This document shows, piece by piece, positions 573 through 23,729 of a stretch of DNA of 23,729 nucleotides. The notes under the pieces were generated by a model. The model saw only the letters and a list, made by a program, of their open reading frames with translations. It made no database searches and had not been told where the DNA came from. The stretch is from Amoebophrya sp. A120 (Eukaryota; Protista; Dinoflagellata), in NCBI GenBank assembly GCA_905178155.1, contig CAJINV010000005.1, positions 7,847,679 to 7,871,407 on the forward strand, in the 5' to 3' direction. A program made the position numbers and the translations under genes. Positions within the stretch are counted from its first letter, which is position 1, and every line of letters begins with the position of its first letter.

Positions 573-3500
573 ACTGTCCACCTGCGCGGATTCGTCAAAG
601 TAAGCCGAGTGTAGAATCCCATAGGGATCCACGGTCAAACCGGGTAAATACCCCGGGCACACTCCCCGCCGCTGGCAGCACTGCTTTTCGTTCCGTATCC
701 TGTGCAAAAGTATCGCACTCGTATAAATGCAAGGCCTGCATTACAAATCTCTTTCTTAAGGTAAATCAGCATTGCAAATTTTATTTCTCATGCTGAGGAA
801 ATTTGTAATGCATTTGTACGAGTACGATACTTTTGCAATTCATATTCCGGATGCTATCGCAATTCCGGCTGACGCAGTTATTACTCGGTAACTTCGCGTC
901 TGCAGTGTTGCCGCCAACAAACCCGGAGGGTATTTCGTTGTTCTCTACAGCAGGGAACACGATCTGCGGTGGAAAATTGCTGACATCCAGCTTCTCTTGT
1001 CCAACTGTGACATAGTCGTGCTTCAGGTAATACGTGGTTTTGTAAACTCCGGCGTTCTGCAGGCGAACGGTAGCGGTACCCTGTGCCGAGGTAATCATCG
1101 AGGTCTCGACCGATTCTGCCGCGATGTATTCCCCGATTGGGATCATGTATGCAGCCAGTGCACAACTCCCCCTCCCCCGCATTTGTATAGCATGAACGGC
1201 AATACAAGCATCAGCAACAGTGCCGGTTTTGCATGGCAAATTTGCACTGGATTGTAGTGCTATTCGGGCTACCAGAACTCGTCATGCATAATAGTGACAG
1301 GAGGGAAAGCGTGGATTTGGTATTTTGCATGAGAAATGAGAACGAGGGGGAGTTGTGCACTGTCATATCATGCGCGCCCGACACTGAAACTCTTTCGGCC
1401 AGGCGAAAAACCCGATGGCGCAGGTGGGGATCTCGCAGCACTTATTGTGAGGAAAAATCCCCCCTCCCCATATTGAAAAAGCATCCGTCGGAAAATTTGT
1501 GATGCAGATTTGTGGCCACAAATCATTTTTGTCTTGCAAAAAGGCAAGCGCTGAGGGATGCGCCGCATTATGGATGCTATTTTTCATGCTGGGTGGCCAA
1601 CAGGGCAGGCGTTTCCAATGCTAAACAGCTAGACTCTTGCGCTCTTAAACACCTATAAGAATCTGGCCGCAATTCCTCACAGCAAGACAGACCTCATCTG
1701 TGTACGCAAATGCAGCATCAGACGTTTCCTTTTGATATGGGGAGGGGGGATTTTTCCTTTTGATAGCACTCCTTGGAGCCCTCGTGGAACCCCGTTTTCT
1801 ATCCTGAGCAAAAACGTCCCCACCCCATAGTTGTCACGCATTTCTGCATGCCAAACAAGTTTCTCATGCTGAGCCCTATGAGAAGCATTGTCTGTCCGTG
1901 TTTTGGAATTTGTCATGCTCGAACCAGCATGCTGTGCTAGATCTGTGATGCTTCTGAACTAGCTAAACAGGACTTTGCTACGAGGACAAGCTTGTCATGC
2001 CAAACAACCAAAGCTGGTTGAATTGTCTAGCAGGTTTCCCATCTTGACTCTGGTGTGGGGACGTTTTTCATCAGGATATTTCCGGGTACGGTGCCAGGTC
2101 TTCGCCGCTTTCCGGCAGACGCACGACGTGTGTCAAGTCTTCGATCGGCTGCCCGAACCCCTTTGACCGGCAATACAGCGTCGCGCGCGTCCAGCCAGGG
2201 GGATTGCTTGGGTATAAATGGGACTTGAAGAAGTCCCCGTGAGGAACGTCATTCACATTCCCGTTCACGGGGATGGTGTGGCCGTCCCCGGAAAATCCCA
2301 AAATGGCGGCGCCGGACTATCAAAATGAAAAATCCCCCCACCCCATATCAAAACGGAAATTTGTGATGCTGATTTGGGGCCACAAATCAGCTTTGTATTG
2401 CAGAGAGGCATTGCGGCCAGATCCCCAGGCTAGGTAGAGGCGCATGTGTCTAGCTGCTCAGCATGGCAAACGACTCCCCTTTAGGCCCAACAGCATGACA
2501 AATCGCTTCCATAATGGGGCGGAAGCTTCTGCCCTTGTCTTCTTGCAAGACAGATGTGATTTGTGACCTCAAATCCGCAACACAAATTTTTGGAAACATA
2601 CCTTTTCAATATGGGGAGGGGGGATTTTGCCTCTCAATACGGACTGCTCGGTGAAAACGTCGGTCAAGCCAGAGGCGTCGATGGCGTCGTACAAAAACAC
2701 GCCGTATGCATTGCAAGCATGTCTGGAACTGGAAAGATCATGGGACTTGTAATGCTAGTCCTACAATCCTGTAACTATCTGTATTGCGTGATCAACAAAA
2801 AGACGCCGATGCCCCCTTATGTCATCCAAAAGCACAGTTTCTCATCCGGGCTGCGCATGACGAGAAGGTGTTCCGCGAATACCTTGTCATGCTTGGCTGC
2901 ATTGGGAAGGATTTCAATCATCCACACTTCAGCATCACAAGTTTCCGGACCCAGACAACATATTTGCATTGGATACGCCGCCACACCGCAGCGGGTGCTG
3001 GCTGTCCGGGCCCTCCCGCCGGCAGCAGTTCTCGGGCGGTAGTTCGCGAAAAGGCTCGGCATGACTCGCCCCAGTTTCCGTGGACGGGTAGGTTCTGGTA
3101 ATAGGAGACCTTTCGCTCGCGTACCGGACAACGCCGTAGCCTTTTAAGCCACAATGGAATTCCTCGTCACTCAAATCGTTTGCGATGCTCCTGTATCAAA
3201 TGTAAAAATGTCTGGGTCTGGAAGAGTCATGCTGTTTTTGCATGACGCAGAAGGTCTGGCATGGAAGCTCTAGCATCACAGGTTTCGAGAAGCCTCCGCA
3301 ATGCCGAACCCGCATGAGAAATCGCCCATTTTGGTGACAGAATTGAGCAGCTTTTGCTACCTATGCATGAGAGATTTTTCTGTGTTCGAAAATGCGCATC
3401 ACAAGTTCGGATCCTTCCAGACCCAGACATTTTTGCATTTGATATCCGGTGGCAGTTGTCGATGCAGCCCCGGTATGCATTGCAAAAGTATCGTACTCGT

Positions 3501-6500
3501 AGTAATCGCAATTGTGCATGACAGATCGCCTTCCTGAGCTAAAACAGCATTACAAATGCCATCTTTCACGCTGAGGGAGTTTGTCATGCGATTTCTACTA
3601 GTACGATACTTTTGCAATGCATACCCGGACCTCCACCGGCTCGCCCTCGTCTTTGCACCACAGCTCTGCTTATCAAGTGCAAAAATGTCTGGGTCTGGAA
3701 GGATGCCACTTGTGATGCTACCTTTGGACTCTACATAAAATCTGTATTGCATGAACAGCAAAAGAGGTGTAATTTGTGCCACGCGGAGAGGGCATTTCTC
3801 ATGCGGTATGAGCATCAGAAAGCCCTCGCAAAATCTGTGATGCTGGGGCATGCATCACAGACCTCATGGGTTATGCAAAATCTGCATGACAAACTCCTGC
3901 ATTCTTCCAGACCCAGACACTTTTACAATCCATACCGCTTTGCCGTGAAAGCCGGGGGCGCAACCCAAATTTCCGTCGCTCCCAGGGGGGTCGTACCACT
4001 TATCTGCGGCGCCGAGCGTCCCCGGCTCAGCGGCAAAACCCGCAGTATCATCTGGGTACAGGTGTACGCTTTTCAGTGCGTTTTCTATCGTGAGGAAAAC
4101 TCCCCATAGCAAAACCGGACACTTCTGAAAATTTGCGATGCTGATTTGTGACCACGCGTCGTCTCTGTATTGCAAGAAGGCCAACCCAGAGACTCCGCCG
4201 CATTATGCAGGCGGCTTGTGATGCTATGGAGCCTACAGAGTAAACCTTTGCCGTGCTACGCGCCTACGTCAAAACCCTTCTACTTAGGCTTAGTATGGGC
4301 CTGCAGTCCTCTACTGCAAGACAGGCCTGATCTGTGTACGCAAATCCTGCATCAGACACTCCCTTTTGATATGGGGAGGGCGGATTTTTCCTTTTGATAT
4401 TTTCCCAGTGGATGTCGTAGGGAAACGAGGATTGTACCGTTAGGCCGGATATCAAATGCAAGAATGTCTGGGTCTGGAAGATTGGTAGGTTTGTCATGTT
4501 GGGAAGCTAAGGGCTGGGCGTCCCTGTCGTTCTCTAAATCTTAAAACGGTAGCCACTTACTCGACAAACTCTAGGTAGAATAAGTTTGGACAAAGTGATC
4601 ATGCAGGTTTTTCCATGACCCGCGCGGTCTGGCATCCACGGCCTAGCATGACAGGTTCTGTGAGATCTCTATCTTCATGCCTTTCCTGCATGAGAAACTG
4701 CCTCGAAACTTGTTCAAAAGTGCACCTCGTTTGGTAATTATGCAACGCAAATTTTTTCACGATCCAGATGTAGCATGACAAGTCACACTCTTCCAGACCC
4801 AGACATATTTGCAATGCATACCGGACGCGGCGCAGGTAACGGCTGCGAGTTTCTCCGGGGGCCGGCACCCCTTCACGCAGCACGAACGTTTGCAGTTTTC
4901 CTCGGTGTACAGCTGTTGCACCACCGCATTATTTTGTTGCTGCATCGCATTCAGGGGCCCGTAGCCGCACAAATGCTGCGCCGGCAGGTTCGGCGCGCGC
5001 AGGGGTTGGTACCAGGGGCCGAAGTTCGCGATGGGATCGTGCCCATTGGCAGGAGCATCGTGCCGGTCACACCCGTTGACAGTGAGGAAGTGTGTCGCGT
5101 CGCAACTCGCCCAACACACTTTCTGCTTGTCCGCCCCGTTTGGGTTGAGGTCAGCCAACCGGTAGTTGCCCCCGGCGCCCGCTGCGTTGCAGTTAAGACA
5201 GGCCTGCTGATAGGGTTTCCCCATTTCGTTGCACAAATCTTGATCCACGTCTCCGAGGACCGTGTTATCAGCTGCAAAAATGTGTGGGTCTGAAAGAATG
5301 CAACTTGTGATGCTGCATTTCGATTCCAAAACAATCTGTATTGCATGAGCAGCAAAGGAAATGTGATTTTTGGTACGCGGAGAGGGCCTTTGTCATGCGT
5401 AGTAGGCATCAAGATCAAGAAGCCCTCAAAAAAACTGTGATGCTAGGGCATGCATCACCGGCATCATAGCTCGCGCAAAACGCGCATGACAAGCCTAAGA
5501 ATCTTCCAGACCCAGACATTATACTTGCAATTGATACGTGTTGGTATTGGAAGATGTCAGATGCGACGCGTCGGTCCGCAGCGTGCAGTAGCACACCGGC
5601 TCGCAGTATCAAATGCAAAAGTGTCTGGGTCTGGAAACATGTGAACTTCTGATGCGTATTTGAGACCAGAAAAAAATCTGTCACGCATGGACCGCAAAAG
5701 TTGCTCACTTCTTGCCACCAAAAGAGGGAATTTGTCATGCGGGTTAGGCATCGCCTAACCTGCTCAAAACCTGTGTTGCTAGGACTTGCATGCTAGACCT
5801 TCTGTGTCATGCACAAACAGCTTCACACTTTTCCAGACCCAGACATATTTGCATTTGATACGCAGCCCCGCAGTTGGACCTTCTGGTTGGACCCGGAGCA
5901 GAGCAGCTGGGGAGCTTGTATAACCCGCTCAGGTGTTACAATCTCAAGCGTTACAATAGAATCTGAGATCAGATTTGTCTTGCCTGATGAGCATGACAGA
6001 CTTGCAGGGCGTTCCACTTTCTGCAATACAAAGTTCGACAGATTGTAGTGGGGTTTGGGGCTCTGGAACTTGTCATGCGCAATCCTGTGGGAGTAGGGTA
6101 GATCGTGCACTTCTTGCAACACAAATTCCAGATTCTATTGTAACGTTTGAGATTGTAACACCTGAGCGGGTTATAGCTTGCCCGGCCACTTTTTCCTTGT
6201 ACCCCTCGGCGCAGATAAGGTCAGAGTCGGGGACCCACCCGTCTTTGTCGGGCATATTGTCATGCTGTGTGAACCCGGGATAGGTCGATGGTTGCTGGTT
6301 CGTAGTCCGGGGCGAGCCGCTCTCTCGCAGAATGTTGTGCCACGCTTTGCTGGGTCTTGGGCGGTAGCCCACCCCGTCGTTCTCCAGCCACCGGTTGGTC
6401 GGCATGTTATTCGCGTCCAAATCCAGCCCATCGTCGCCCCCCAACCCGGGCCGGTAACAGCCGGCAATGCAGCATATCAAATGCAAATATGTCTGGGTCT

Positions 6501-9500
6501 GGAAGATTCCGAGCTTTGTCATGCAGTTTTTCCAAGCTCCACCAAGTTTGGAATGCAGCGCCTAGCATCACAGGTTCTGCAGCCCCTTGGTGATGCCTAT
6601 TCTACATGAAAAATGCCCTCTCAGCATGGCCAGAAGTGGGGACCTTTTGCAGGTCATGCAGCACAGATTTTTGTATGATCCGCAACATGCATAACAAGTT
6701 CGCATCCTTCCAAACCCAGACGTTTTTGCAGTTGATACAGCAACTGTCGTAGCAATTGTCCTCGTTATATGCTTGCTCGCTGCAATACACGTGCTCTGTG
6801 TAGGGATAGGTGGAGTAGTATCCTGAGTAAAAACGTACCCACACCAGAGTTGTAATGCAGATTTGCAAAGACAGGAAGACTTGTAATGCGCATGCGCATC
6901 CCCATGAGAGCCATTTCCAATCGTGTTTTGGAATTTGTGATGCTGTGAACAGGATGAGCAGATGAATCTGTGATGCGGCTGCACTTGCTAACCTGCACTA
7001 CACTGCAGAGCGCAACTTGTCATGCGTGACTCACAAAACTCCTAGGTTTGTGTTGCAAAATCCTCATCCTGACTCTGGTGTGGGTACGTTTTTACTCAGG
7101 ATAANGAGCGCAACTTGTCATGCGTGACTCACAAAACTCCTAGGTTTGTGTTGCAAAATCCTCATCCTGACTCTGGTGTGGGTACGTTTTTACTCAGGAT
7201 AAGTAGAAATATGCGCCCTCAGCAGTCGTGTCCCTCCGATGGCACCCGATGGAGTCGCATTTGGACCAGCACTATCAAATGCAAATATGTCTGGGTCTGG
7301 AAGGATGCAAGGTTTGTCATGCTTGTCTGGCATGACTGGAGAGTTTGTGACGCGTGTCCAAGAAAAGATAGAGACCCTTTTGCTTGTCATGCAAAACGCA
7401 GTGTTCGTCATGTGGAAAGCGCAACACTAAGCCGCGCAAATATTTCTCATGCTTGGCTGCGCATTACAGAGAGCTCACTATTCACAACTCAGCATTACAA
7501 GTTTACAGACCCAGACATATTTGCAATGCATAAGCACCGCTGCTCACCCGTGCTCCCGCCTGCCGTCGTCGGGTTTCCGACCTCTTGCGGGTCCGTTGCC
7601 GAAACCCAGGGACGTATGGGAGTTCCAGGACCGAAATCGACAAAATCGCAAAACTTGTAATGCGTAAAATGTAGGCCACGAGTAGCCTCTGTTAGGAGCA
7701 GGAAATAAATGAGACCCATTGCAGGCCTGTTTAGAGGAAGACGATTTCTTGCCAGAGTAGCACGACAGGAGCAGTCTTCTTTGCCCAAACAGCATGACAG
7801 ACTGGATTTTGGTGCTCCCGAAATTTGTCATGCGCCACTTGGAATAAACTGAGGCTTGTTCAACACAACTGGTATCGATTTTATGCATCACGAAGTATTT
7901 CGATTGTGTTGATTTCGGTCCTGACGCTTCCATAGGACGTAGCTCGTACTTCGTCACGTCGCTGCACACGGCGCAATACTGCTTGCCCGGACCCGGATAT
8001 CAACTGCAAATATGTCTGGGTCGGGAAGAATGTTTTGCTGTTTCCGCACGACACAGAAGGTCTGTCATGGATGGCCTAGCATCACAGATTTTGAGAACCT
8101 TCCGCAATGCCCAATCCGCATGACAAATCCTCCGTTTTTGGTGACAGGAGATGGGGATGGGCACCTTTTGCTGCCTATGCATGAGAGATTTATGTGTGTT
8201 GTGACATGCGCATCACAAATTCGCATCCTTCCAGACCCAGACATTTTTGTAGTTGATACCGGACAAATCGGATTGATTTTCTCCCCACTCGGAACCGCGT
8301 CCTTGAAAGTTTGGCGAAATCCAAGTCCAAACCCCACGCCCGGATAATGATATCCTATTTAAAAACGTCCCCACCCCATAGTTGTCTGTCATGCAGATTT
8401 GCATCAAGAGAAACATTTGCAATGCGCATCCGCATAAGAGGAATTTGTAGCCGTGTTCTGAGATTTCGATTTGTAATGCAGAAAACAGGAGAAGCAGGCG
8501 TCTTTGTGATGTGGCTGTCCTTTCTAAACAGAACTACACTACAGACGGAAGCTTGTCATGCACAACTCCCAAAACTTGGAGATTTGTATTGCAGATTTAC
8601 CAACTTGACTATCGGGTGGGGACGTTTTTCCTTAGGATAAATGATTCGCGATGCCCAGTGTCGTATCCTGACTCACGATGGTGGCTTGGTCCGCTGTGCA
8701 CTTGCAGGTGGGGATGCACCCGTAAGCTATAGCGTGTTCCCCGGGCCCGGGACAAATCAAATCCGGGGTGCCCGCATCGAGAAGGCTCTGGTCTGAGGTC
8801 TGGTGGTTCGCCGGATAGGCGCCGGCGTTTATGAGAGTGCACAACCCCCCCCTCCACCTCGTTTTACCAAAGGGAAAAACACAGGAAAGGGGGAAAATTC
8901 AAAATTTTGCAATGCCTCATTTTTGAGAGAGGTGAGAACCACACGCATGCGCATGGCCTTGGTGATTTGCGGCGGAATCGCAAACGCCAAAAAACCGCTT
9001 ACAACGTATCAAAAGACATACTACGTAGAACGCCTGCCCCCTGGCCTGTCTACAATTTGAAACAAAAGGCCCGCGCTTCGTTTTAAAATCATTGCCGGGC
9101 CCCAGGCGGCGCCGGGCTTCGGGCCAGGGGGCCGGCGCCATTTTCCGAAGCCCCAGGCCATGCCCAACACGAGCAAAACCTGGCCCGGGCGCTACCGCTT
9201 GGGGTGGCCAAAAATTGCAGTCGGGGCCAAGGCAGTTTTTGCCTTCTAGTCTACGGCGTGCGGCTTCGGGCCACTTTTGGGCCCGTTCCTGTGGATTTGA
9301 AATCCGTCCTATCTGCCCCGGTTTTCGGCCAAAATTGGCCGCGCCGCTGTCGCGTCCGGGGCTGCCTCCATTTCTGGGCATTCCTGTGGATTTGTAACCC
9401 GACCTATGTATGTGCCCCGGTTTTCGGCCAAAAAAAGGCCTCGCTTTTGGGGTCTTTTTGATGGCCCGTGCCGAGGGGGGGTGGCCCCAAGGGTACCCCC

Positions 9501-12500
9501 CCGCCCATTCCTGTGGATTTGTAACCGCACCTGTGTGCCTTGATTTTTGGCCCATTTCGAGCCACCGCTACTTCCAGGCTTTGGCCCCTCTCCCAGACCC
9601 CACCCCCTGTCCATTCCTGTGGATTTGCGCTATAACAAAAGAGGTCCATTGGAAGAAGCCAGGCACGATGCTGTTGCGCCGGAATTGAGCGCAAAAAAGT
9701 GTGTCCCTTCTCGGACATACAAATTATACAGGCCGGCCACAGGGCTGCAAGCTCGTGGGGCCGTCCACCGCGATCGCCAGCAGCCGAAGTCGGGCGGCCC
9801 CGGTCCGGCTCAAATAGGGCCCACCCTCCCCCGGGCCCTTTGCGCTAATTCGGAAAAGAAAAAAAACGCGACGGCCAGGTCTTTGGGATCTTTCAGCCAT
9901 TTTGCCGCCGTTGCCTCGGGCGGGTTCATGTTCGACAGAAAAGCGGGCGCCCGACTTCCGGCACGAACGCGGCGAGCAAAAATAGTTAGGAGCGCAAAAA
10001 TATTGGCGACGGTGTGCCGATCTTGCGGAGAGTGGATGGCTGCGCTTTGCTGGAACTCAACAGACAGAAGCGCCGCCGCAAGGAGATCGCGCCGGGCCAT
10101 CGGGCCGGTGGGCCCGGCCATCCCTGCACCACTAGACTTCAGAGAGGAGCTGCCTTTGCAACATACAAAAATTTTGAATTTTTCCCCTTTCCCGTGTTTT
10201 CCCACTTGGTACGTTTGTCATGCCAAATACCCAATCCGCCCTTTGCCTCTTGGCACTGTTTGCATAACAAGTTCTGGTAGCCCAAATTATAGCACTATAA
10301 TCCAGTGCGAATTGGTCATGCAAAACTGGCACTCTTGCTGATGCTTGTACTGCCGCTCATGCTATACAAATGAGGGGAACAAGAGGGGTTGTGCACTGTT
10401 ATAACGTTGAGCCAGGAGTGGTAACCCTGCTCGCATTATTAAAATGAAGAATCCCCCCTCCCCATATCAAAACGGAAATTTGTGATGCTGATTTGTGGCC
10501 ACAAATCATCTTTGTCTTGCATATAGGGTCATAGGAACCATTTGACGCATTCCAGAGCAAGTCTGTCATGCGCTTTCGACTATCGCAAACCTGTTTGCCA
10601 TGCGCAGTTGCTAGCCTTCTGCATACCCAAACAGGCTCAGAAAATGCCGCCAAGCACTTTCTACAAGACAACTCTGATTTGTGTACGCAAATCCAGCATC
10701 AGAAACTTCGTTTCGATATGGGGAGGGGCGGGGATTTTTCCTCTCAATACGCATTTGTATCCATTGGCCCCGACCCCCGAATGAAACGCGGCCTTTAGCC
10801 AATTCCTACACTCGTATCCTGTGCAAAAGTATCGCACTCGTACAAATGCAAGTCTTGCATTACAAATCTTGTTTCCAAGGCAAATCTGCATTACAAATTT
10901 TATTTCTCACGCTGAGCAAATTTGTAATGCATTTATACGAGTACGATACTTTTGCACAGGATAACTCGTCGGTCATTACAACCACATTCGTGCGGCTGTA
11001 GTCGTGAAGGGGCTCTGTCCCGTCCTTGAGAAAGCACTCGTTCGAACCATGCGTGGTACCGTCCGAAGCCGAACCTTCTTCTTTTGCCCAGGCCACCGCC
11101 TTACACAGCGGCTCTTGCGCACACAGTGCGGCGCATGCTACTTCGCTCTCGATGTTGCCCACCGTCATTATGTTAGACCAGAAAATTGGACGAAGTGCAT
11201 GCTTTGTTTTTCGCGCCCCCGCTGCGGCGGCGGGTCGCTTTCGTTTCGCCTCGGGGGCTGCCGGGAGGCCTGACAATACTTACACCCGGCCCGGTGGCCT
11301 CGCTGCGCCATAAAACAACTCACGCGTTGTGACTTGTCAAAGAGAGTCGGGGCAGCTTCCCGGCCCCGAAGCTCCCACCCTCGCCCAAAGGGCGAGGCGC
11401 CCGCCGCCCCGCAGAGCAGCTTCGTTCGTTCCCCAAGGGCTGGCGGCTTGCTATCAGTCGGGGCGGTCCGACTGGCGGGCGCGGGCCACCATGTTTTTGG
11501 CCGACAACGCATTTGCCCTCCCACCATTCCACCCAAAAGGACGGGCCGGCCTTCGAAGCAGTGGGGCGCGCGCCCCACCCTAGAATGAATGGGGCCGGCC
11601 TGCTTTAGCCCCGGCCGGGCGGCTGCCCCCTCTCAGGTAAAGGCTTTGCGAGGGGGCCCGAATTAGCCCAATTCGGCCCCCTTTCGGGGGGAAAATGGAA
11701 CCGGTTTTAAAACATTTTGGGCCCCCCCGTAGCATCGGGCGAAGGCCAAAAAGGGAAATATCTGGCAGGCCTAGGCCAGTTCGGGCCCCTTTTTCCCCCC
11801 CCGGAAGGAATGGAATGGCCGTCCCCCTTGGGAGGGCGGGTTTTGCTTCTGTCCCTCCATCGGCGGGCCGGGGCCGGCCCCGAAAGACGGAAGGCCCGCC
11901 CGGCCCCGGCGAGACTTCTGCCGGCTCCGGGCCGGCTTCGAGTTGGGGCCCCAGGGTGCACGCCGCGCCGGCCGGCTGTGCTTCCCCGGCGTGGCCCCGA
12001 CCCGTGCGGGGGCGAGTGGCGGAGTGCGGGGACATGCCCTCTCCGCCGTATCTTCGTCGGGTCTGGCCGCGCGGCCGCAATGCAGGAAGTTATATTTTTC
12101 CGGAATAATAAAGCAGCCCGGCAACCGGCCTCACCACCGTGGCCCCCGATTTCGTTCCGTCCGCGACCCCCGCTGGAAAGTGGGGGCGTAACAAAGTATG
12201 AACATCGCTCTCGATGTTGCTCACCATAATCATGTCATAATGAGCCATGTCCTTATCCTCCTCGAGAATGCACGGCTTTCCAGCTGCGAATACATCTGAA
12301 TTTTTGATTTTGTGTGTTTTGTGTATTCATCATCAGATTTTGATTATTCTAAATTACTGCATTGATGCTCTCACGACCCAGCTACTATCAATTAATTGCG
12401 TGATGCCATATAATGATAAACAAAAATATGGTCATGGAACTACTAGGGTCACAATTTCGCTTCTATCTACAGACGACAACCACGACTCTAGCTAGGAATC

Positions 12501-15500
12501 ATGGGCTGATGCAACGGTGCAGCAGAAATCATCAAGCATCGTATAGAAAAATTTTCCTCCCCCGTAAAAAATACGGTGCGATTCGAATGGGTAGAGCGCT
12601 TCTTCCAGAATACAAGTATGAAATTCGAAGCCTGCTCTTTCCTCCAGCATCTATTTCTACACAGATCTTTACTGCAGCCATCAGGCTAATAACTGAGATA
12701 AAAGGCGCCGAAGGCGCGCCAGCAATAGCTGTAGGCTTAACGTTGCACCATGACACGAAAAAAAAATCTGGTATGCAACAAGGCGCACTGCTTTATTTCT
12801 ATTCTGCTGAAAATATGCGCCGGAGTAGAAGGCTTTTTCGTTTCGCAAGCGTTCTGCCAGTTGCTGATATCGTATCCCGAAATTTCACTCGGCGCTTTGC
12901 AACCCTGCTGGCAGCAGTTTCCGTGCTGAATATGGCGTTCTCAACTGTTACATTCTCAATTGTATACATGATTTGTCATGCAAAATGACCATCATGAGCC
13001 ACCAGACGACCAACCTCCTGCTTCGCATGACAAATTCTCGGAGTGCTAAACAGCGTCTAAATCTGTACCAAATCTGTCATGCAAGACGCGCAGGCTCCCC
13101 CCTTTCACTTTTGCCATTCTCGCATCACAAATTCATGTAACAGCTGAGAGCGTAACAGTTGAGAACGCCGTACTGAAGGCAGTTGGTTTCGGAGTCTTGC
13201 TTGCCGTTACACCAGGGATATGCATTGCAAAAGTATCGTACTTACTCGTATAAATGCATTACAAATTTCCTCAGCATGAAAAATGTTGAAATTTGTAATG
13301 CTAATTCGCCTTAAGAGAGAGATTTGTATTGCATGCTTGCAATTACTACGAGTACGATACTTTTGCACAGGATAAGGGAACAAAATCACTCGAAGTGTAC
13401 GCCGTTTTGATGTCGTCGCCATCCTGTAGTCGGGTAAAGTACCACGGGCCACTTGGGTTGTTAATGTTGTGTGTCGCATGATATGCATCTGCAAATGTCA
13501 TGTCCGGGTCTGGAAGAAAACGAGTTTGTGATACTAGGTCTGGAAGTAGACGCGAACCTCTGTATTGCGGGCACAGCATGACGCACCCACTTTTGGCCAC
13601 GCGAAGGCGGAATTTCATCTCATGCAGTATTGGGATTGGTATTAGACAGCCGCATGACAACAAGTTGTGATGCTGCAGCTCGCATTTCAGGCCGTCTGCG
13701 TCATGCTAGACCTGCATGACAAACGCTGCAGGGGGGTTCCACACCCAGACATATTTGCAATGCGTACATGACAATCGACATTCGAACACTTGGCTATCCT
13801 GTGCAAAAGTATCGTACTCGTATTGCAATCATGCATTACAAATCTTTTTCTTAATGTAAATCAGCACTACAAATTTTATTTCTCACGCTGAGGAAATTTG
13901 TGATGCACCTATACGAGTACGATACTTTTGCAGTTCATATTGGCCCAACAGGGCCGATTGACGTACCAACCCTTATCCCCCGCGATCCACTGAAACGCCC
14001 GCACGGTGTCGTGTGGCGGCACTTCGCGCACCGCGTCGATCGTACTTCGACTTATCAAATGCAAAAGTGTCTGGGTCTGGAAACTTGTGATGCTGGGCGG
14101 CGTATCATGAGGAGGCCACAAGTGCTGGCTCAGCATGACAAGTTTCTGAGCTTCTAGGTGTTGCCTATTCTGAGTGACAAACTGCGTTTCTGCATGACAG
14201 AAAAGTGGCGCTCTTGGGTAACGTGCATGACAGACTTGAGAGTCATGCCGGACAAGCATGACAAACATGCGCTCTTCCAGAGGACCCAGACACTTTTACA
14301 TTTGATTCGACTGCAAGTTTTGCAATTCTGTGCTCCTGGGGCGGGACAGGTCTCCACGTTTGTCTCGTCCTTACTACCGTTGTCGCAGACACACTTGGGC
14401 ACGCAGTCACTCGTGCTGTCTACAGAAAGAGGTTGGTTGGACCCCGGACACCAAAAGGCCAGATCGTGATCGAGATTCGGTTCGTAGTCATTTTCGTTGC
14501 AGGCAAAACTTACCGTAATTCCCGACGCAACGCCGGTGTTCGTCATTTGGCCGCTCGTTTTGTAGTCGGCCGTTTGTTTCGGGTAAAGCGCCTGGTCTTG
14601 CAACACCGCGTTCCAATTCGGCGTGTATCAAGAGTGAGAACGTCCCCACTGCAGGGCCAAGATGGGCATTTTGCAACACAAATGCAGAAACTTTAGCATG
14701 TTCGCATGACAGGTTTGGGCTTCTAGCATACCAAATGCCAAAACACTACTGCATACAAATTGCTTCTTATCGGGATGCGCATGAGAAACAGTTTAGGCAT
14801 GCAGATTCGCATTACAACTCTGGGGTGTGCTCGTTTGTAACTAGGATAGCGTGGCCGTGTACTTGGCCAGTTCGTAGTCGACGGTAGACGGCTCGGTGCA
14901 ACTCTCTATGCATTGCAAAAGTCCTTATCCACCGTATACTAGAGTAAATCGAATTATAAGGAGGAAAGTGAAAATGCTGGTTTGATGATCGCTAGGAAAA
15001 AAAATCTGTCAGAGTGGTCAGTCATAAATGATTACATGCTCGTACGATACAACTTTTGCACCAGAGCATACCCTGCACGCAACACCGACCGGGCACGTCG
15101 TCCATGGTGCAGCGTTCAGAGTCACATTTTTTGGTTCCCGACTGGGAGATTTGATGGTAGCGCTTGCTCGCAAAGGCACTACTCGTTGCGCCACTCGGCT
15201 TCGTTCCGAGATAACAGTCCACGCCCACCGAGCACTTTTCCCGGCAGTTCCGCAGGCTCAAAGGCTCATTCACCCCACTGCACCAAAATTGCGCGGAGGT
15301 GGTGCCGTCGGCGGGGAGGTGCGTGGTTGCTATGGGGGTGTCAGGATCGAAATTGACAAAATCGAAAAATTTGTGATGCATAAAATCGATACCAGTTGAC
15401 GCCTCAGTTTGTAAGTGGCGCATGACAAATGTCGGGAGCACTCAAATCCAGTCTGTCATGCTGTTTGGGCAAAGGATACTGCTGCTGTCATGCTACTCTG

Positions 15501-18500
15501 GCAGCACATTGCATACCCCTCAACAGGCTTACAATCGGTCTCATTTGCCTGCTCACCAATACAGGCCTCCAGTGCCCTACATTTCATGCATCACAAGTTT
15601 TTCGATTTTGTCGATTTCGATTCTGACACAACCATAGTACTGTCGCAGTTTATATTCGAAGGCCAGTTACTCCACGCGGGATGGCCGGACGAAGACTCCA
15701 CGCCGGGGTACGCGAAGTATCAAAATGAAAAATCCCCCCTCCCCATATCGAAAAGGAACCCCTAAGAGACTTCGCGATGGTGCTTATTTGTGACCACAAA
15801 TCGCGTCTGTCTTGCAAGAAAGCGCGTCTGTCTTGCAACATGGGCTCCGCCCCATTATGCAGGCGGTTTGCAATGCTGTTGGTCCTACAGCATAGACGTT
15901 CCCCATGCTAAGTGCCTAGGCCAAAACCTCTCTACATTGGCATGATACTGCAAGACAAATCTGATTTGTGTACACAAAGCCAGCGTCAAAAGTTTCGTTT
16001 TGATATGGGGAGAGGGATTTTTTCATTTTGATACTTTGTCGCCGCGCTTTACCAAATCATCCCAGGAGAACGGGGATGTCAGTTCGTACCCGTAGCTATC
16101 CGAGGGAGGTGTGCAACCTAGAATGCAGCACGTATCTTTGTCGTTGTTGGTCGTGCAGGCTTTCTTTGCGCAGTACCTCGAGGCGTGGTCGGTTCTCTTC
16201 ACGTAGTACCCGAGATCCCCGCACCAACTGAATCCGCTGCATGCTTGCTTGGCATCGCAGCACGTGTTTTGGTCTACGGAACCTGAACAACTCGCGCCCG
16301 CGCACTGGATATGGATGTGTCAGGATCGAAATCGCCAAAATCGAAAAGTTTGTGATGCATATAAATGCAAGGCACTGAAGGCCTGTATTGGGGAGCAGGC
16401 AAATGAGACCGATCGCAAGCCTGTTTAGGGGTATGCAATGTGCTGCCCGAGTAGCATAACAGGAGCGATCTTCTTTGCCCAAACAGCACGACAGACCGGA
16501 TTTGGGTGCTCCCGAAATTTGTCATGCGCCACTTGGAAACTGAGGCTCCAACTGACATCGATTTTGTGCATCGAAAATATTTCGATTTTGTCGATTTCAG
16601 TCCTGACACTCCCATACTGGATGCTGCTTGCGTTGTCTTTCAGCACGGTGCTCGCGCTTGGGTTGCACTGGTAGGTGGAGCAGTAGGCTCTTCCATCGCA
16701 GCAAGCGCTATGGTCGTCGGCCTCGGAGCATATGAGATTGCACAACATCACCTCCCCCCTCGTTTGTCTTTGTCATGCAAAATCCTATAATCCAGTTACA
16801 GCACTGTGGCTGTGGCAGTGTCTGCATGACAAATTTTTTCGAAGCCCGAACTGTACTGCAATTGCCGCACGAAGTTGTCATGCGCATGCGTCGGATCCAT
16901 GTGCCCTGTGGTTTCTATTGCTCCTCATCATCATGCCCTTCTTCAAATCAGGGGAACGCGGGGGAGTTCTTGTCGTGCAACACTCTCATACTGCAGGGGG
17001 TCGACTTACAGCGCGTTGAGCCTGCGTTGCTTTTCAGTGTGTACCCATTGTTACATGTCAGCGTCGAGCAAAATGTATGGAGAGAAAAAAGTTTGTCACA
17101 GTCACTAACTTGCAGGTTTTGCATTACAAATTTTCTTAGCATCACAAATTTTCCTTGTATTGCAGAAACACTAGGGAAATCCCCAATGAAGTTCGGCTGT
17201 GATGCATTTTTACGCATGACAAACACATTTGTATTGCAAAAATGCGCATCAGTGATCGTGACGAACTTTTTTTCTTTGATAAAATGCTGATTGTTCGCAA
17301 CACCGGTCCCGGTCCGCACTGACAGAGCAGGTTGTTCCCGCGCAGCGCACGTTAGCGACTCCGCTTTTTTTCGTATTCTGAGTAAAAACGTCCCCTCCCC
17401 AGAGTTGTCATGCAAATCTGCATGCCAGAAAAGTTTCTCATGCGGGGCTCCACGAGAAGCATTCTCTAATCTTCGCGTTGGGGAATTTGTGATGCTAGAA
17501 GCAGCACGATATTCGAGATTTGTCATGCGAAACAGCCGAAGCTGGTTGATTTGTGTAGCACATTTTGCATCTTAACTCTGGTGTGGGGACGATTTTACTC
17601 AGGATATTTCGCGTAGTAATTGGGGCAGGTGAGATATGCAATACAAATTTCCCGTACACGCACAAAATGCATGACAAATCTCGCTAACTTGGAGTGTCCA
17701 ATTTGTCATGCTGAGTAAGATTGGAGACAAGTTTTGTCATGCAGAGCCAGCATCTGTACGTCGTGTACAGGAAATTTACTACGGATATGAGATCGCTGCA
17801 CTTCGCCTTTTCCTCGCAGCACACCTTCTGGTCATCCGCGATGGCCCCGGGGTTGCAAGCATCGCCCTTGGACACGCACACCGGATTACCGCCTTTCGCG
17901 ACGTGCGTGCTGCTCGGACAGGCGGACGCAGCGCTGCATTTTTTCACGCAGCACGTGTTTTTATCACTTGCTTTGGTGCAGCTGTTTCCGGCACAGTAGG
18001 TTGTCCCTGTGGTGGCCTTCACGTAGTTGCTGGCATGTCCACACACCGTACTGATGTTGATTTGGCTGCACTTCTCGTGGCATCCTCGCAGCTGCATGTT
18101 TTGGTCAGCGCCTGGGCACATGTATTGCGGGGACTGTGCAACGTGTATCAAGTGCAAAAGTGTCTGGGTCTGGAAACTTGTAATGCTAAAAACGAATGAT
18201 AGACGCACTGCAATACGCAGCTATGCATGGCAAATTTTTTGGCTGCCATGTCTTACGTATTCCGCATGGCAAAGGCAAACGGCGTTTTTGCATGACAGGT
18301 AAGAGGGCTTTTTCGTGCCTATGCAACACAGATTCTCGAGTCATGCCAGACAAGCATGACAAACTTGCATTCTTCCAGACCCAGACAACATTTTTGCATT
18401 TGATAACGTGCGTGGTCTCGCAACTAAGTACGTTGTTGACGTTCTTCCAGTTCTCGTCGGGCCGGGCAGCTGTGTTCTTACCGTTAACCCAACTATCAAA

Positions 18501-21500
18501 TGCAAAAGTGTCTGGGTCTGGGAGATTCCGAGATTTGTCGTGCAGAATTTCGATGCCCCATAAGGTCTGGAATGCAGGACCTAGCATGGCAGATTCTGCG
18601 AGGTCTCTATCATGCCCTTCGTGCATGAGAATCTCCCTCGCATGGTGGTCAGACAAGGGCGACTTTTGGTGATTGCGCAAGACAGATTTTTGTGTGATCC
18701 ACAGGACGCATCACCAGTTCCATTTTTCCAGACCCAGACATATTTGCAATCCATACCAACCACGACACCGCAACTGGTTCCAATCGTCCCCGCTGCGACC
18801 GTATACAACTGTGCAGAAGTATCGTACTCGTAGTAATCGCAAGGATGCATTTTTTTCGTAAGGTAAATCCGCATGACAAATTCGAATTCCATTTGTCATG
18901 CTGAGCCCATTATTTCTATATGCAATTTATACTAGTACGCTACTTGTTTTGCAATTCATAGACCGTCAGAGCTCACCTTGTAGCCTTTTTTTGCACCCGC
19001 GCTCAGCGCTTTGCACTTCTTCAAACAGCACGTGGTCCTGTCCACGTCCTCCACGCACTGGTTGCCGGCGCAGACCTTTATCCTGAGTAAAAACGTCCCC
19101 ACCCCAGAGTCAAGATGAGGACTCTGCAACACAAACCTAGAAGTTTTGGGAGTCACGCATGACAAGTTCCAGTCCGTAGTGTAGTGCAGGTTGGCAAGGA
19201 TAGCCGCATTATAAATCCATCTGCTTATGCTGTTTCCAGCATCACAAATTCCTCTAAACGGTTGGAAATGCCTATCATGGGGATGCGCGTCACAAATGTT
19301 CCTGTCATTGCAAATCTGCATGACAACTCTGGGGTGGGGACGTTTTTACCCAGGATAACCTTGGACATGTCCTTAGTCGGCCAGTCCCACCCACACAGGC
19401 CGTCATCCGTTTGCATCAACAGCTGCTTTCGACACGTTGGGGTCATGATCAAATGCAAACATGTCTGGCTTTGGAAGTAGAATGCGTGTGTGTTTTGTCA
19501 TGCATCTTTTAGATCATGATGCAAATGGTCTCTAATGCACGCAAAAGCATCACAGGTTTTGCGCAGGCCTTTTGATGCCTTTCCCGCATGAGAAATTCCC
19601 TATCTCTCTGCGTAGTAAGAAAAAATTATACAATGGGCATCTACTTTTATTGGCGCTCATGCAATACAAATTTTTGCCTATTCCAGAATCCGCATCACAA
19701 GGTGCCACCTTCCAGACCCAGACATATTTGCCATGCATGGTCATGATCATGAAGTCCCGGTCCCCGGCGTTCCAGGGCGATTCAACGTCGATATCCGTCT
19801 TCTTCAACCAAACAAACGAGTCCGAGTATCAAATGCAAGTATGTCTCAGTCTGGAAGATGAATGTGAATCCAAGGTTTGTCATGCACCTTTTGCATGAGC
19901 ATGACCCATGATGTCTTGTCTATGATGCATGCCCGAGCATCACAAACTTTTTGAGGGCTACTATCTGATGCGTTTACCGCACGACAAATGCCCTCTCCGC
20001 GTGAGAGCACAAAGTCGACTCCTCTTGCCTTTCGTGCAAGAACACAGATTTTTTTAGAAACCGGGGACAGCATCAGAAGTTCAAGTTGCAGCCTGCTTCC
20101 AGACCCAGACATATTTGCATTTGATACGGAGGGCTTGAGAACCATGTGCGTGCACTCGTAGTATCCTGTGCAAAAGTATCGCACTCGTAGTAATTGCAAT
20201 CATGCACTACAAATTTTTTTCTTAAGGTGAATCCGCATATACAAATTTCATTTCTCATGCTGAGGGAATTTCTTGTCATGCATTTATATATACGAGTACT
20301 ATACTTTTGCGATTCATATGCCGCGATTTGCGCAGTCGAGGCGCGCACTTTGCCAGTTCGTATTGCCGTAGTTTATGGCGTTCCCTACGTTACATTCTCA
20401 ACTGTTGCATGGATTTGTCATGCAAGAATGGGAAAAGTGCAAGGGGGAAGATAAAGAAAAAGATTGCGCCTCTTGCATTACAGTTTTGGCTCAGATTTAG
20501 ATGCTGTTTAGCCCTTCGGAAAGTTGTCATATGAAGCAGCTTGATGATGTGGATGCTCATGAGAATTCTGCATGCCGAATCATGTAACAGTTGAGAATGT
20601 AACGTCTGAGAACGCCATATACCAGCGAAATTCATTACCGCCTTTATCCTCGTTCACCCGTCTCTCACAGTCTGGGTAGTTCCCGGTGTCGCAGGTCATT
20701 TTGCAGCCGAACAACCTTAACCTGCCGCCGCCACTTGGGCACTGGTATTGTGGATAGTTCCCCGAATCAGAAACTTGAGCCGAATGCGTTGGAAAGCACG
20801 ACAGCCTGGGGTGCCAAACTGTTTCGGACGCGTACGCGAACCCCGGGCGCAGCGCGTAAAATTCCCCCGGCTTGTAAAGCTTCTGGAACTCGGTTCCCGA
20901 CCGGTGCGCTGCGCGGCTACGGGGCTTGTCGGTGCCCGAGAGGGGCTTTACCAACCGGTAGCCTTTCTTCTCATCATTCGAGGGCTCCGTGCAGGCGGGC
21001 GTTTCGCAGCAGGTGTTCTTGTCACTAGCCGCGCAGGTGCCGCTCGCACATTTTTTCGACTCGTCGGTCGTCAGCCACTTGTCCGTGCCGCAGACTATGG
21101 AAGCGTCAGGTCTGAAATCGACAAACTTAAAATCATGACTTGCTATGCATAAAATGCGGGCAGGAAGTGCTTGTCTTGCCGGGATGGCAACGGCAAGTGA
21201 GGCCGATTATGAGCCTGTTTAGGGTTTGAAATGAAGCTGCTAAGTAAAGCAGCATGACAAAAGCAGGCTTCCGTGCCCCAAGAGCGTGACGCATTAGATT
21301 CCGGCGGTCGGAAAATTTGTCACGCGCTGCTTGATATTAACTGGGCTTCCGACTGGTACAAATGGTATCGGTTTTAATATGCATGACAACCTATTTCAAC
21401 TGTGACGAAGATTTCGATCCTGACACATCCATACAGACTGTAGTCGAGGTAAAGTAGAAAAGCTTTGGCGTCGGAAAGTAGGGCTGAGTACTGCTTTGCG

Positions 21501-23134: not shown

Positions 23135-23307
23135 TATGAGAGTGCAGCTGCCCAACTGGTCCCCCTCCCGCTCATTTGAAGCAGGGCATGAACAGCAAGA
23201 CAAGCGTCGGCAAGGATCCAGGTTTAGCACGACAAATTTGGACAACATGATTGTAGTGCTATTTACTGGGCTCTTACCGGAACTACCGGAGCCTGTCATG
23301 CATAATA
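23135..23307. mobile_element. Left part of a family-G element, interrupted near 23307
   Basis: Starts TATGAGAGTGCA and is colinear with 1148-1367 up to GTCATGCATAATA; the right end is outside the window. Confidence 0.75.
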
Positions 23308-23419
23308 TATATAAAAGCAGAGGTTTGCTGGGGTCGCAGGGGTTATTTTTGTCTAGCGTCGGAAGAGCAGAACCGCGGGAGCCAAAGCCCTCCCGTCGGA
23401 GGCTGCGCGGCTTCGCCAC

Positions 23420-23586
23420 TTTGGTACCCTACCCCGATTCGCCTAATTTCATACCCTCACCCGATTCGCCTTCTTTTGTACCCTACCCCGATTTGGCTAA
23501 TTTTGTACCCTCCTCGAATTTCGTACCCTATCCCGATTCGCCTAATTGTGTACCCTAGCCCGACTTGGCAAATTCTGCACTCTAGC
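23420..23586 (+). repeat. 27-bp minisatellite (about 6 units, one shortened to 18 bp)
   Basis: TACCCT recurs at 23425, 23452, 23479, 23506, 23524 and 23551; consensus TTTTGTACCCTACCCCGATTCGCCTAA. Confidence 0.9.
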
Positions 23587-23640
23587 GCGCCCCGGGTAGT
23601 TTTGCAAGCACCTTGCCCCGAAAGGCCTCACCTTGCGCCC

Positions 23641-23729
23641 CCGGGAAGCACGGAAACCGGGAAACACGGAAACCGGGAAACACGGAAACCGGGAAACACG
23701 GAAACCGGGAAACACGGAAACCGGGAAAC
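23641..23729 (+). repeat. 16-bp tandem repeat CCGGGAAACACGGAAA running off the window end
   Basis: About 5.5 near-perfect copies. Confidence 0.95.

Follow-up and report, generated by a model that had tools for sequence, protein, structure and literature searches.

Probable introner elements of Amoebophrya sp. A120 that interrupt coding sequence in both directions and fit one removal rule

Two coding blocks and their 48 elements

The stretch of DNA analyzed here, called the window below, comprises 23,729 bases of contig CAJINV010000005.1 of the dinoflagellate Amoebophrya sp. A120 (assembly GCA_905178155.1, positions 7,847,679 to 7,871,407). It contains two coding blocks on the minus strand that are interrupted by 48 elements, and every one of these elements starts with TAT, ends with ATA, has inverted ends and is flanked outside these ends by a 5-base direct repeat. 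When the element plus 5 bases was removed at all 48 sites (23 in the left and 25 in the right block), 0 stops were left in 2,244 codons. Judged by their sequence, the elements very likely belong to the introner elements of Amoebophrya, a known class; what is apparently unreported is the persistence of such elements in both directions without canonical splice sites, together with a single rule of removal.

That each element restores the frame had been claimed before, and it held with one rule (element plus 5) at 48 of 48 sites. With random phases in 20,000 trials per block, 0 stops were reached once in the left block and never in the right. Retention of any single one of the elements brought back at least one stop, and other uniform removal offsets gave 12 to 14 stops in the left block and 23 to 25 in the right; two offsets, 2 and 8, stand outside these ranges because they preserve the reading frame, and with them 2 stops were counted in the left block and 0 in the right. 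At six of the 48 junctions, all of them near block ends (those at 696 and 13219 included), a one-base shift in one direction was possible without a stop. Thus, the frame alone leaves these six junctions loose, but the exact 5-base duplications pin them.

The elements were listed by an end-repeat scan and a self-comparison, and their borders were refined by hand. They account for 13,629 of the 23,729 bases and are 145 to 383 bases long, apart from one of 1,574 bases (median, 262); the median exon between them measures 82 bases, with one element per exon. The TAT tip is found at 91 of the 96 element ends (283 of 288 tip bases), and beyond it the families have hardly any end sequence in common. 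Positions 11 to 13 are A in 152 to 174 of 189 strand-called elements, that is, the 48 elements of the window and 141 from the other listed loci described below; families E, G, and H have no A run. The 5-base duplication matches at 5/5 positions in 36 of the window elements, at 4/5 in 6, at 3/5 in 2, and at 2/5 in 4. A TA target duplication of the Tc1/mariner type (element minus 2) was considered and dropped, since the duplication is made up of the 5 bases outside TAT…ATA. The 2/5 duplications at 15331, 15718, 20162, and 20374 stand beside intact tips, which exceeds simple decay with 36 of 48 duplications perfect; the element at 15331 is 87% identical to that at 16310 and yet has a duplication of only 2/5. 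The elements are rich in a 9-base motif of the GCATNACAA type, with 126 occurrences in their 13.6 kb as opposed to 3 in the 6.7 kb of exon sequence. It is present in all families, is often spaced by 31 to 34 or about 49 bases, is inward-symmetric near element ends, and might be a protein-binding site.

The product of the left block is rich in cysteine (5.7%), and that of the right block has cysteine-rich repeats (8.1%). The only Pfam match above the cutoff, in 1 of 8 window exons, was a PAN/apple domain (PF00024, E value of 1e-5) at 10971-11168, the start of the left block; two weak Pfam matches in window exons (E values of 0.04 to 0.05) were dropped as chance. A search for homologs of two window exons gave none, and the longer of the two gave none in a full profile search either. 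In-frame bridges across 11169-12830 exist but are not unique, and both one gene and two genes are allowed. Within this gap, 1,060 bases (11169-12228) have TAT/ATA ends, a duplication of 4/5 and no end stem and fit removal of an element plus 5 bases in frame; they also hold a duplicated 34-base piece of exon and could equally be read as a GT-AG intron.

Four further structures were noted. An exact 97-base repeat flanks an N at 7105 (7008-7202), likely two contigs joined with their overlap kept as an assembly duplication; because of this repeat, the real F element listed at 6819-7201 would measure about 285 bases, some 98 fewer than listed. Nested in the G element at 8830-10403 is a GC-rich insert of 1.3 kb (8865-10211), itself bounded by inverted ends and a 5-base duplication; no match to it was found among at least 128 other element loci. 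Another G-family element end lies at 23136 and runs through tandem repeats beyond the window (23136-23729), and at 527-572 there is a solitary F-family end, for which no partner was found. Rfam models, those of group I and group II self-splicing introns included, gave 0 matches at the gathering score. All features are listed in Table 1.

Table 1. Coding blocks, elements and other features of the window. Coding is on the minus strand; for elements, + and - give the orientation relative to the reference copy of the family.
Feature	Positions	Strand or orientation	Remarks
Left coding block	603..11168	-	981 codons after removal of 23 elements; 0 stops
Family A	696..844	+	Reference orientation
Family G	1148..1367	+	
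Family C	1443..1765	+	
Family F	1800..2078	+	GA-AG option; duplication 4/5
Family C, reversed	2318..2639	-	
Family B, reversed	2705..2975	-	
Family B	3194..3444	+	GA-AG option
Family A	3474..3623	+	
Family B, reversed	3671..3934	-	
Family C	4086..4399	+	
Family B	4450..4820	+	No canonical option; presumed-RNA contig ends at 4821, 6 letters over
Family B, reversed	5266..5536	-	
Family B, reversed	5607..5860	-	
Element without family partner in window	5919..6175		
Family B	6475..6737	+	
Family F	6819..7201	+	97-base repeat around N at 7105, likely assembly join
Family B, reversed	7273..7532	-	
Family E	7615..7934	+	
Family B	7998..8258	+	
Family F	8351..8639	+	
Family G, reversed	8830..10403	-	With 1.3-kb insert
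Family C, ambiguous	10437..10749		Leans to reference; outside orientation counts
Family A	10815..10963	+	
Gap between blocks	11169..12829		Short coding piece at about 12230-12300; 34-base duplication; GC-rich insert
Right coding block	12830..22866	-	1,263 codons after removal of 25 elements; 0 stops
Family H	12931..13172	+	
Family A, reversed	13219..13374	-	
Family B, reversed	13482..13766	-	
Family A	13795..13939	+	
Family B	14053..14307	+	One terminal base changed
Family F, reversed	14626..14848	-	Weak end duplex, -12.9 kcal/mol
A-like element	14907..15070		Duplication 3/5
Family E, reversed	15331..15636	-	GT-AG option; duplication 2/5
Family C	15718..16033	+	Duplication 2/5
Family E	16310..16616	+	
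G-like element	16731..16990		Outside orientation counts
Element without family partner in window	17076..17281		
Family F	17374..17606	+	
Element without confident family	17635..17787		
Family B	18146..18405	+	
Family B	18494..18755	+	
Family A	18802..18960	+	Weak end duplex
Family F, reversed	19079..19357	-	Presumed-RNA joint skips 284 (element + 5); GT-AG option
Family B	19447..19739	+	Both terminal bases changed; no canonical option; presumed-RNA contig ends at 19451, 15 letters over
Family B	19827..20126	+	
Family A	20162..20318	+	Duplication 2/5
Family H, reversed	20374..20619	-	Duplication 2/5
Family E	21096..21433	+	
Family H	21547..21784	+	Presumed-RNA joint skips 243 (element + 5); GA-AG option
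Family B	22477..22814	+	Weak end duplex
Likely canonical GT-AG intron	22870..23114	-	Pyrimidine tract; upstream in right gene; in-frame join, sequence only

Orientation in the window and in independent loci

The original prediction named pairs of elements of one family as reverse complements of each other internally. To keep the inverted ends out of this comparison, 45 bases were trimmed from each end, and global scores were calculated for the reverse-complement and the same-strand alignment. The interiors of every pair scored as reverse complements: G 1148/8830 with 108 versus -26 (8830 being represented by its first 80 and last 265 bases), A 696/13219 with 77 versus 6, E 15331/7615 with 272 versus 18, E 15331/16310 with 322 versus 16, F 1800/19079 with 98 versus 4, and F 6819/19079 with 242 versus 6 (first 285 bases of 6819). 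The untrimmed identities were, in the same order, 186/213, 135/148, 256/305, 268/306, 202/274, and 239/279. It had also been proposed that both directions occur within one gene. This is true of the G pair and of E 15331/16310, each of which lies inside one coding block, but in the A and F pairs of the prediction the two members lie on opposite sides of the gap at 11169-12830, as do the E element at 7615 and its partner; through other copies, both directions are found in the left block for families B, C, and G and in the right block for families A, B, E, F, and H.

Family and direction could be given for 42 of the 48 window elements; the other six have no family or an ambiguous orientation and are outside the counts. 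The ratios were 6:1 for A, 10:6 for B, 3:1 for C, 3:1 for E, 4:2 for F, 1:1 for G, and 2:1 for H, and thus all seven multicopy families are two-way. The majority direction was taken by 29 of the 42 elements, versus 27.4 expected by coin toss (P = 0.27).

A pattern of 30 end bases led to at least 128 further loci, all on contigs of one assembly and none overlapping the window. An automatic caller gave at least 407 unique calls in these loci, from families repeated across that assembly; in the window, it detected 43 of the 48 elements and made a single additional call, on the nested insert, and in shuffled sequence it made 0 to 1 calls. Of the calls in the loci, 346 were in loci of at least 1,500 bases with at least two calls, and for 141 of these a frame of at least 300 codons was restored on one strand. 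Among the matches listed, 114 of the 141 could be given a family, in 42 loci, and 64 of them had the direction that is in the majority in the window versus 50 with the opposite one (P = 0.22; B, 31:30; A, 12:9); 14 of the 21 restored frames with at least two copies of one family held both directions. A genome-wide sense/antisense count per family had been suggested as a check; among these listed loci, both directions were found as well. When strands were assigned less strictly (249 labeled elements out of 327, in 70 loci among the matches listed), the ratio was 142:107 (P = 0.03), and with duplications of 4 to 5/5 only, it was 129:101 (P = 0.07). From these counts, both directions persist in coding sequence, perhaps with a slight preference for one.

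Five of 41 long exons from the other listed loci had Pfam matches. In one of these loci (L004, positions 2780-5678), an SNF2 helicase gene with a frame of 806 codons carries C elements in both directions and one B element. The B element has no canonical option, and its exact removal gave a gap-free match to 4 of the 4 homologs compared. At the junction of the reversed C element there was no gap relative to the closest homolog, but the stretch is poorly conserved; at the other C junction, a one-residue gap lies a few residues downstream. The best named relative of the gene is from Amoebophrya sp. A25 (67%), and the locus carries the families of the window. This SNF2 gene would make a good conserved test locus.

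Splice signals, RNA junctions and possible ways of removal

A canonical option was defined as a GT/GC/GA-AG pair at any cut that leaves the exon intact. Such an option was found in 5 of the 48 window elements and in 15 of the 141 others, and random coding sites gave 8.2% and 10.4%, respectively; 169 of the 189 elements have no option, and the 20 that do correspond to the chance rate. There was no difference between directions (12/142 versus 8/107), and even a wider slide from -15 to +5 found GT/GC-AG in just 4 of the 48 window elements. The motif YTRAY is branch-like. No excess of it was seen in the 189 elements (37 versus 66), nor was there an excess of pyrimidines near their 3' end (0.537, versus 0.545 antisense). 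A target preference of the C…G type was dropped: the window gave 19 and 21 of 48, but the other elements gave 34 and 40 of 141.

The ends themselves are mirror images. Of 30 positions compared in the 189 elements, 29 had the same base composition in the 5' end as in the reverse-complemented 3' end. Unequal tips move with the element, one family A tip being the 5' tip in one direction and the 3' tip in the other. An end stem was predicted for 44 of the 48 window elements on the transcript strand and for 46 on the other, with a mean duplex energy of -35.2 kcal/mol on each. Both strands fold their ends equally, and therefore a symmetric signal is possible. The original prediction had put such a signal into the terminal repeats or the terminal stem. 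Its symmetry is borne out by ends that are noncanonical, alike in mirror image and able to serve on either side when their tips are unequal, but the stem as the signal was not supported by an excess of G·U over A·C on the transcript strand. Since orientation is near even, canonical sites are at chance level and one rule fits, the signal needed would lie in the mirror-image ends rather than in a polar interior or the target. Structure is favored over sequence because of the diversity of the family ends and because the elements of strain A25 start with TTA (PMC7789003). The strength of the stem may far exceed what is required, or the tips may be read by a protein.

Where exactly the cuts lie was addressed with duplications whose copies differ. 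Two sites with unequal copies (the L004 element at 3809 and the window element at 14907) give a hint that 4 to 5 upstream bases are retained in the mRNA; the cut would thus have a polarity relative to the transcript but be blind to the direction of the element. In 49 cases of diverged duplications, stop codons ruled out no cut position, and the direction of A/T-ward changes showed no pattern for cut placement. Changes were found at 5 of 288 tip positions versus 22 of 240 duplication positions, which is not significant at half rate (P = 0.07).

Two full junctions were found, both in run X1, which has a depth of about 3 and whose RNA nature is a guess. One joins 19073 to 19358 and skips 284 bases, the reversed F element plus 5; the other joins 21541 to 21785 and skips 243 bases, the H element plus 5. 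In addition, two contigs end exactly at the point of divergence between spliced and unspliced sequence; one of them ends at 19451 and has 15 left-over letters, the other ends at 4821 and has 6. We infer that these ends, whose left-over letters are not displayed, reflect splicing at B elements without a canonical option. A third joint (19101 to 19307, side 22) connects two ends of one element and was attributed to another copy. Full joints were absent from 17 of the 19 elements compared and from runs X8 and X9, but cover was lacking, so this is not evidence; removal of one family in both directions was not seen among the RNA joints. The raw RNA runs X5 to X7, which bear the same species label, gave no joint between window exons, only partial matches to element ends with foreign flanks, and we draw no conclusion on expression from them. 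In X5 and X7, such element ends with other flanks were seen at 3184-3225, 7061-7103, and 18154-18188, with up to about 340 reads, and because of these reads some copies elsewhere would stay in RNA or abound as precursors.

We consider it likely that the elements are recognized on RNA by their symmetric ends, by whichever chemistry they are then removed. For the more specific explanation that we prefer, we see an even chance: transposon-derived introns would be removed by a relaxed spliceosome that is positioned by the mirror-image ends and not by GT, branch point, and AG. Going by the anatomy, a DNA transposase would insert the element either way and duplicate 5 target bases. According to the folding prediction, either strand could then pair its ends, giving the same TAT…ATA structure whichever the direction. 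The element would leave together with one copy of the duplication and the exon would be restored, as suggested by the two presumed-RNA junctions and, at the other sites, by the frame. The cuts would be measured from the end structure, the 5' cut within about 1 base of one tip and the 3' cut 4 to 5 bases beyond the other tip, and the chemistry would be spliceosomal. Consistent with the last step, the right gene also holds the likely GT-AG intron at 22870-23114, and for A120, 83 of 89 spliceosomal proteins and all small nuclear RNAs (snRNAs) except U1 are described (PMC7789003).

Several observations weigh against recognition by symmetric ends or against its spliceosomal form. In the literature examined, no precedent was found for a spliceosome that works without conserved donor, branch, and acceptor. 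All RNA support comes from the one run of about threefold depth whose RNA nature was guessed, and both full joints are among the 3 of 19 compared elements that have a canonical option (post hoc P = 0.018, or 0.05 when the contig end at 19451 is counted). There is a mild 57:43 skew toward the window majority direction (P = 0.03 to 0.07). Selected RNA pairing left no sign in the 189 elements: G·U and A·C pairs numbered 297 and 304, and private changes formed 145 wobbles versus 160 mismatches. Pairing is poor at tip positions 4 to 7 (77 to 126 of 189), and several elements have weak end duplexes, with energies of -12 to -17 kcal/mol. Finally, TAC occurs at 9 5' tips and its mirror at 1 3' tip among 343 strand-called elements, a post hoc result for 1 of 30 positions. 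This TAC/TAT bias runs opposite to the expectation for wobble pairing, and the A located three bases before the 3' end may be important; a preference of TATG tips for the 5' side was not supported.

The symmetric ends could also be read by a different machinery: a structure-specific nuclease would cut on both sides of the stem and an RNA ligase would join the exons, a route also suspected for the nonconventional introns of euglenids. We regard this as possible but not probable. The absence of a polar spliceosomal signal from the elements and the position of the cut sites in arbitrary target sequence would both be expected, U1 snRNA went undetected in both A25 and A120 (PMC7789003), and hairpin introns of euglenids leave as full-length circles, with no lariats (PMC11282704). 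On the other hand, no such enzyme has been shown, although none was sought; selection for pairing was not seen; the spliceosome of A120 is nearly complete (PMC7789003); and the noncanonical introns of Fritillaria are reportedly spliceosomal (PMC11282704). A wider reading, that Amoebophrya has a second, nonspliceosomal pathway of mRNA splicing that takes any long end hairpin irrespective of its sequence and direction, applies a 5-base ruler and religates exons exactly, we likewise regard as possible but not probable. If it were true, insertions into coding sequence would be nearly harmless anywhere, and a portable tool for seamless RNA excision would be at hand.

It is unlikely that each direction uses canonical or cryptic GT/GC/GA-AG sites of its own, or that efficient removal is confined to elements that possess them. 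This had been named as the outcome that would overturn the original prediction, and options at the chance rate speak against it, but both of the two full presumed-RNA joints do have one; there is also precedent in the two-way introners of Aureococcus and Polarella (bioRxiv 2020.10.14.339549). Against it stand the 169 of 189 elements without an option, the 4 of 48 found with the wider slide, and the L004 homolog match, which is exact across a junction without an option; moreover, more than 60% of the RNA-supported introns of A120 are described as noncanonical (PMC7789003).

Still less likely, in our view, is an excision from DNA by a transposase-like enzyme, as with the internal eliminated sequences of ciliates. 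Such a process would be blind to direction; it agrees with the full strand symmetry and the lack of a G·U bias, and run X1 was only guessed to be RNA. However, the share of words present in runs X2 and X3 was 0.69, whereas a share of only 0.31 lies wholly outside elements, and thus these runs carry the elements. The introns of A120 were published from transcriptome sequencing compared with a DNA assembly (PMC7789003), and 6 of the 48 target duplications match at just 2 to 3 of 5 positions. That the elements are retained, either in dead genes or with an artifactual match in frame, is hardly credible: the searched window exons lacked homologs, but against this stand the stop-free codons with null results of 1 and 0 in 20,000, the exact presumed-RNA joints and the restored, conserved SNF2 gene.

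Significance and comparison with known systems

If the signal lies in the ends only, this would explain why the elements are so dense, with one for each exon of a median 82 bases. It would also narrow the question of how tens of thousands of noncanonical introns are removed in A120 without detectable U1 snRNA, their mechanism of removal having been left open (PMC7789003). The window offers natural test pairs of the same family, in opposite directions and in the same transcript, such as 15331/16310 and 20374/21547. There is a consequence for introner searches as well: the method of PMC9860276 allows matches in the opposite direction, and the pipeline of PMC12130899, as described there, requires the same direction and would split or miss about 4 in 10 copies.

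The closest relatives are the introner elements described from A120 itself (Farhat et al. 2021, PMC7789003). In these, an inverted repeat of 8 to 20 or more bases joins the intron ends; it reads TAT, 7 variable bases and then at least three A's, and direct repeats of 3 to 5 bases lie at the borders. Shared with the elements of the window are the inverted TAT ends, the direct repeats, the many families, the noncanonical borders (predicted for most elements of the window), a length of about 240 to 260 bases, and the presence of canonical introns in the host genes. Repeat lengths and splice positions are variable in that description, whereas one rule fits 48 of 48 here. In the accessible part of that paper, the orientation of elements is not treated, the word being used for genes only, and in mostly open-access literature we found no report for this class of two-way use without canonical sites.

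Among transposons, the IS3EU/GingerRoot elements have TA…TA termini like those seen here, and the TAYGG…CCRTA ends of their fungal families resemble the tips of families E and H (PMC10045372, PMC12730594). Their duplication usually has 6 bases; here, it has 5, in 299 of 404 cases from the listed loci with 6 bases in 0, a count made with a caller that sought 5 and with which a hand census agrees. No transposase was found in the window, although no search was made with the frames of its two large inserts.

Parallels in removal have been described from euglenids and Fritillaria (reviewed in PMC11282704 and PMC11453091). The nonconventional introns of euglenids are likewise joined at their borders by inverted ends, have duplication-like repeats, and lack a pyrimidine tract; they differ in a pyrimidine|purine consensus, CAG/CTG ends, their release as circles, and their lineage (PMC11282704). 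Introns of Fritillaria borealis derived from miniature inverted-repeat transposable elements share the inverted ends, a target duplication, and noncanonical borders, but there the borders are fixed as AG-AC or AG-AT with a preferred TAC target, whereas they are arbitrary here (PMC11282704).

With regard to direction, a comparison can be made with the introners of Polarella glacialis (classes 1, 2, 3, 6, 7, 8, and 10) and Aureococcus anophagefferens (bioRxiv 2020.10.14.339549). Like the elements of the window, these are transposon-derived introns that arise both ways round, with one direction favored. Both, however, carry or recruit GT/GC/GA and AG, which were found in 20 of 189 elements here, the chance rate. 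Because these sites are required, only suitable target sites work in Polarella and Aureococcus, a filter that the A120 elements do not show.

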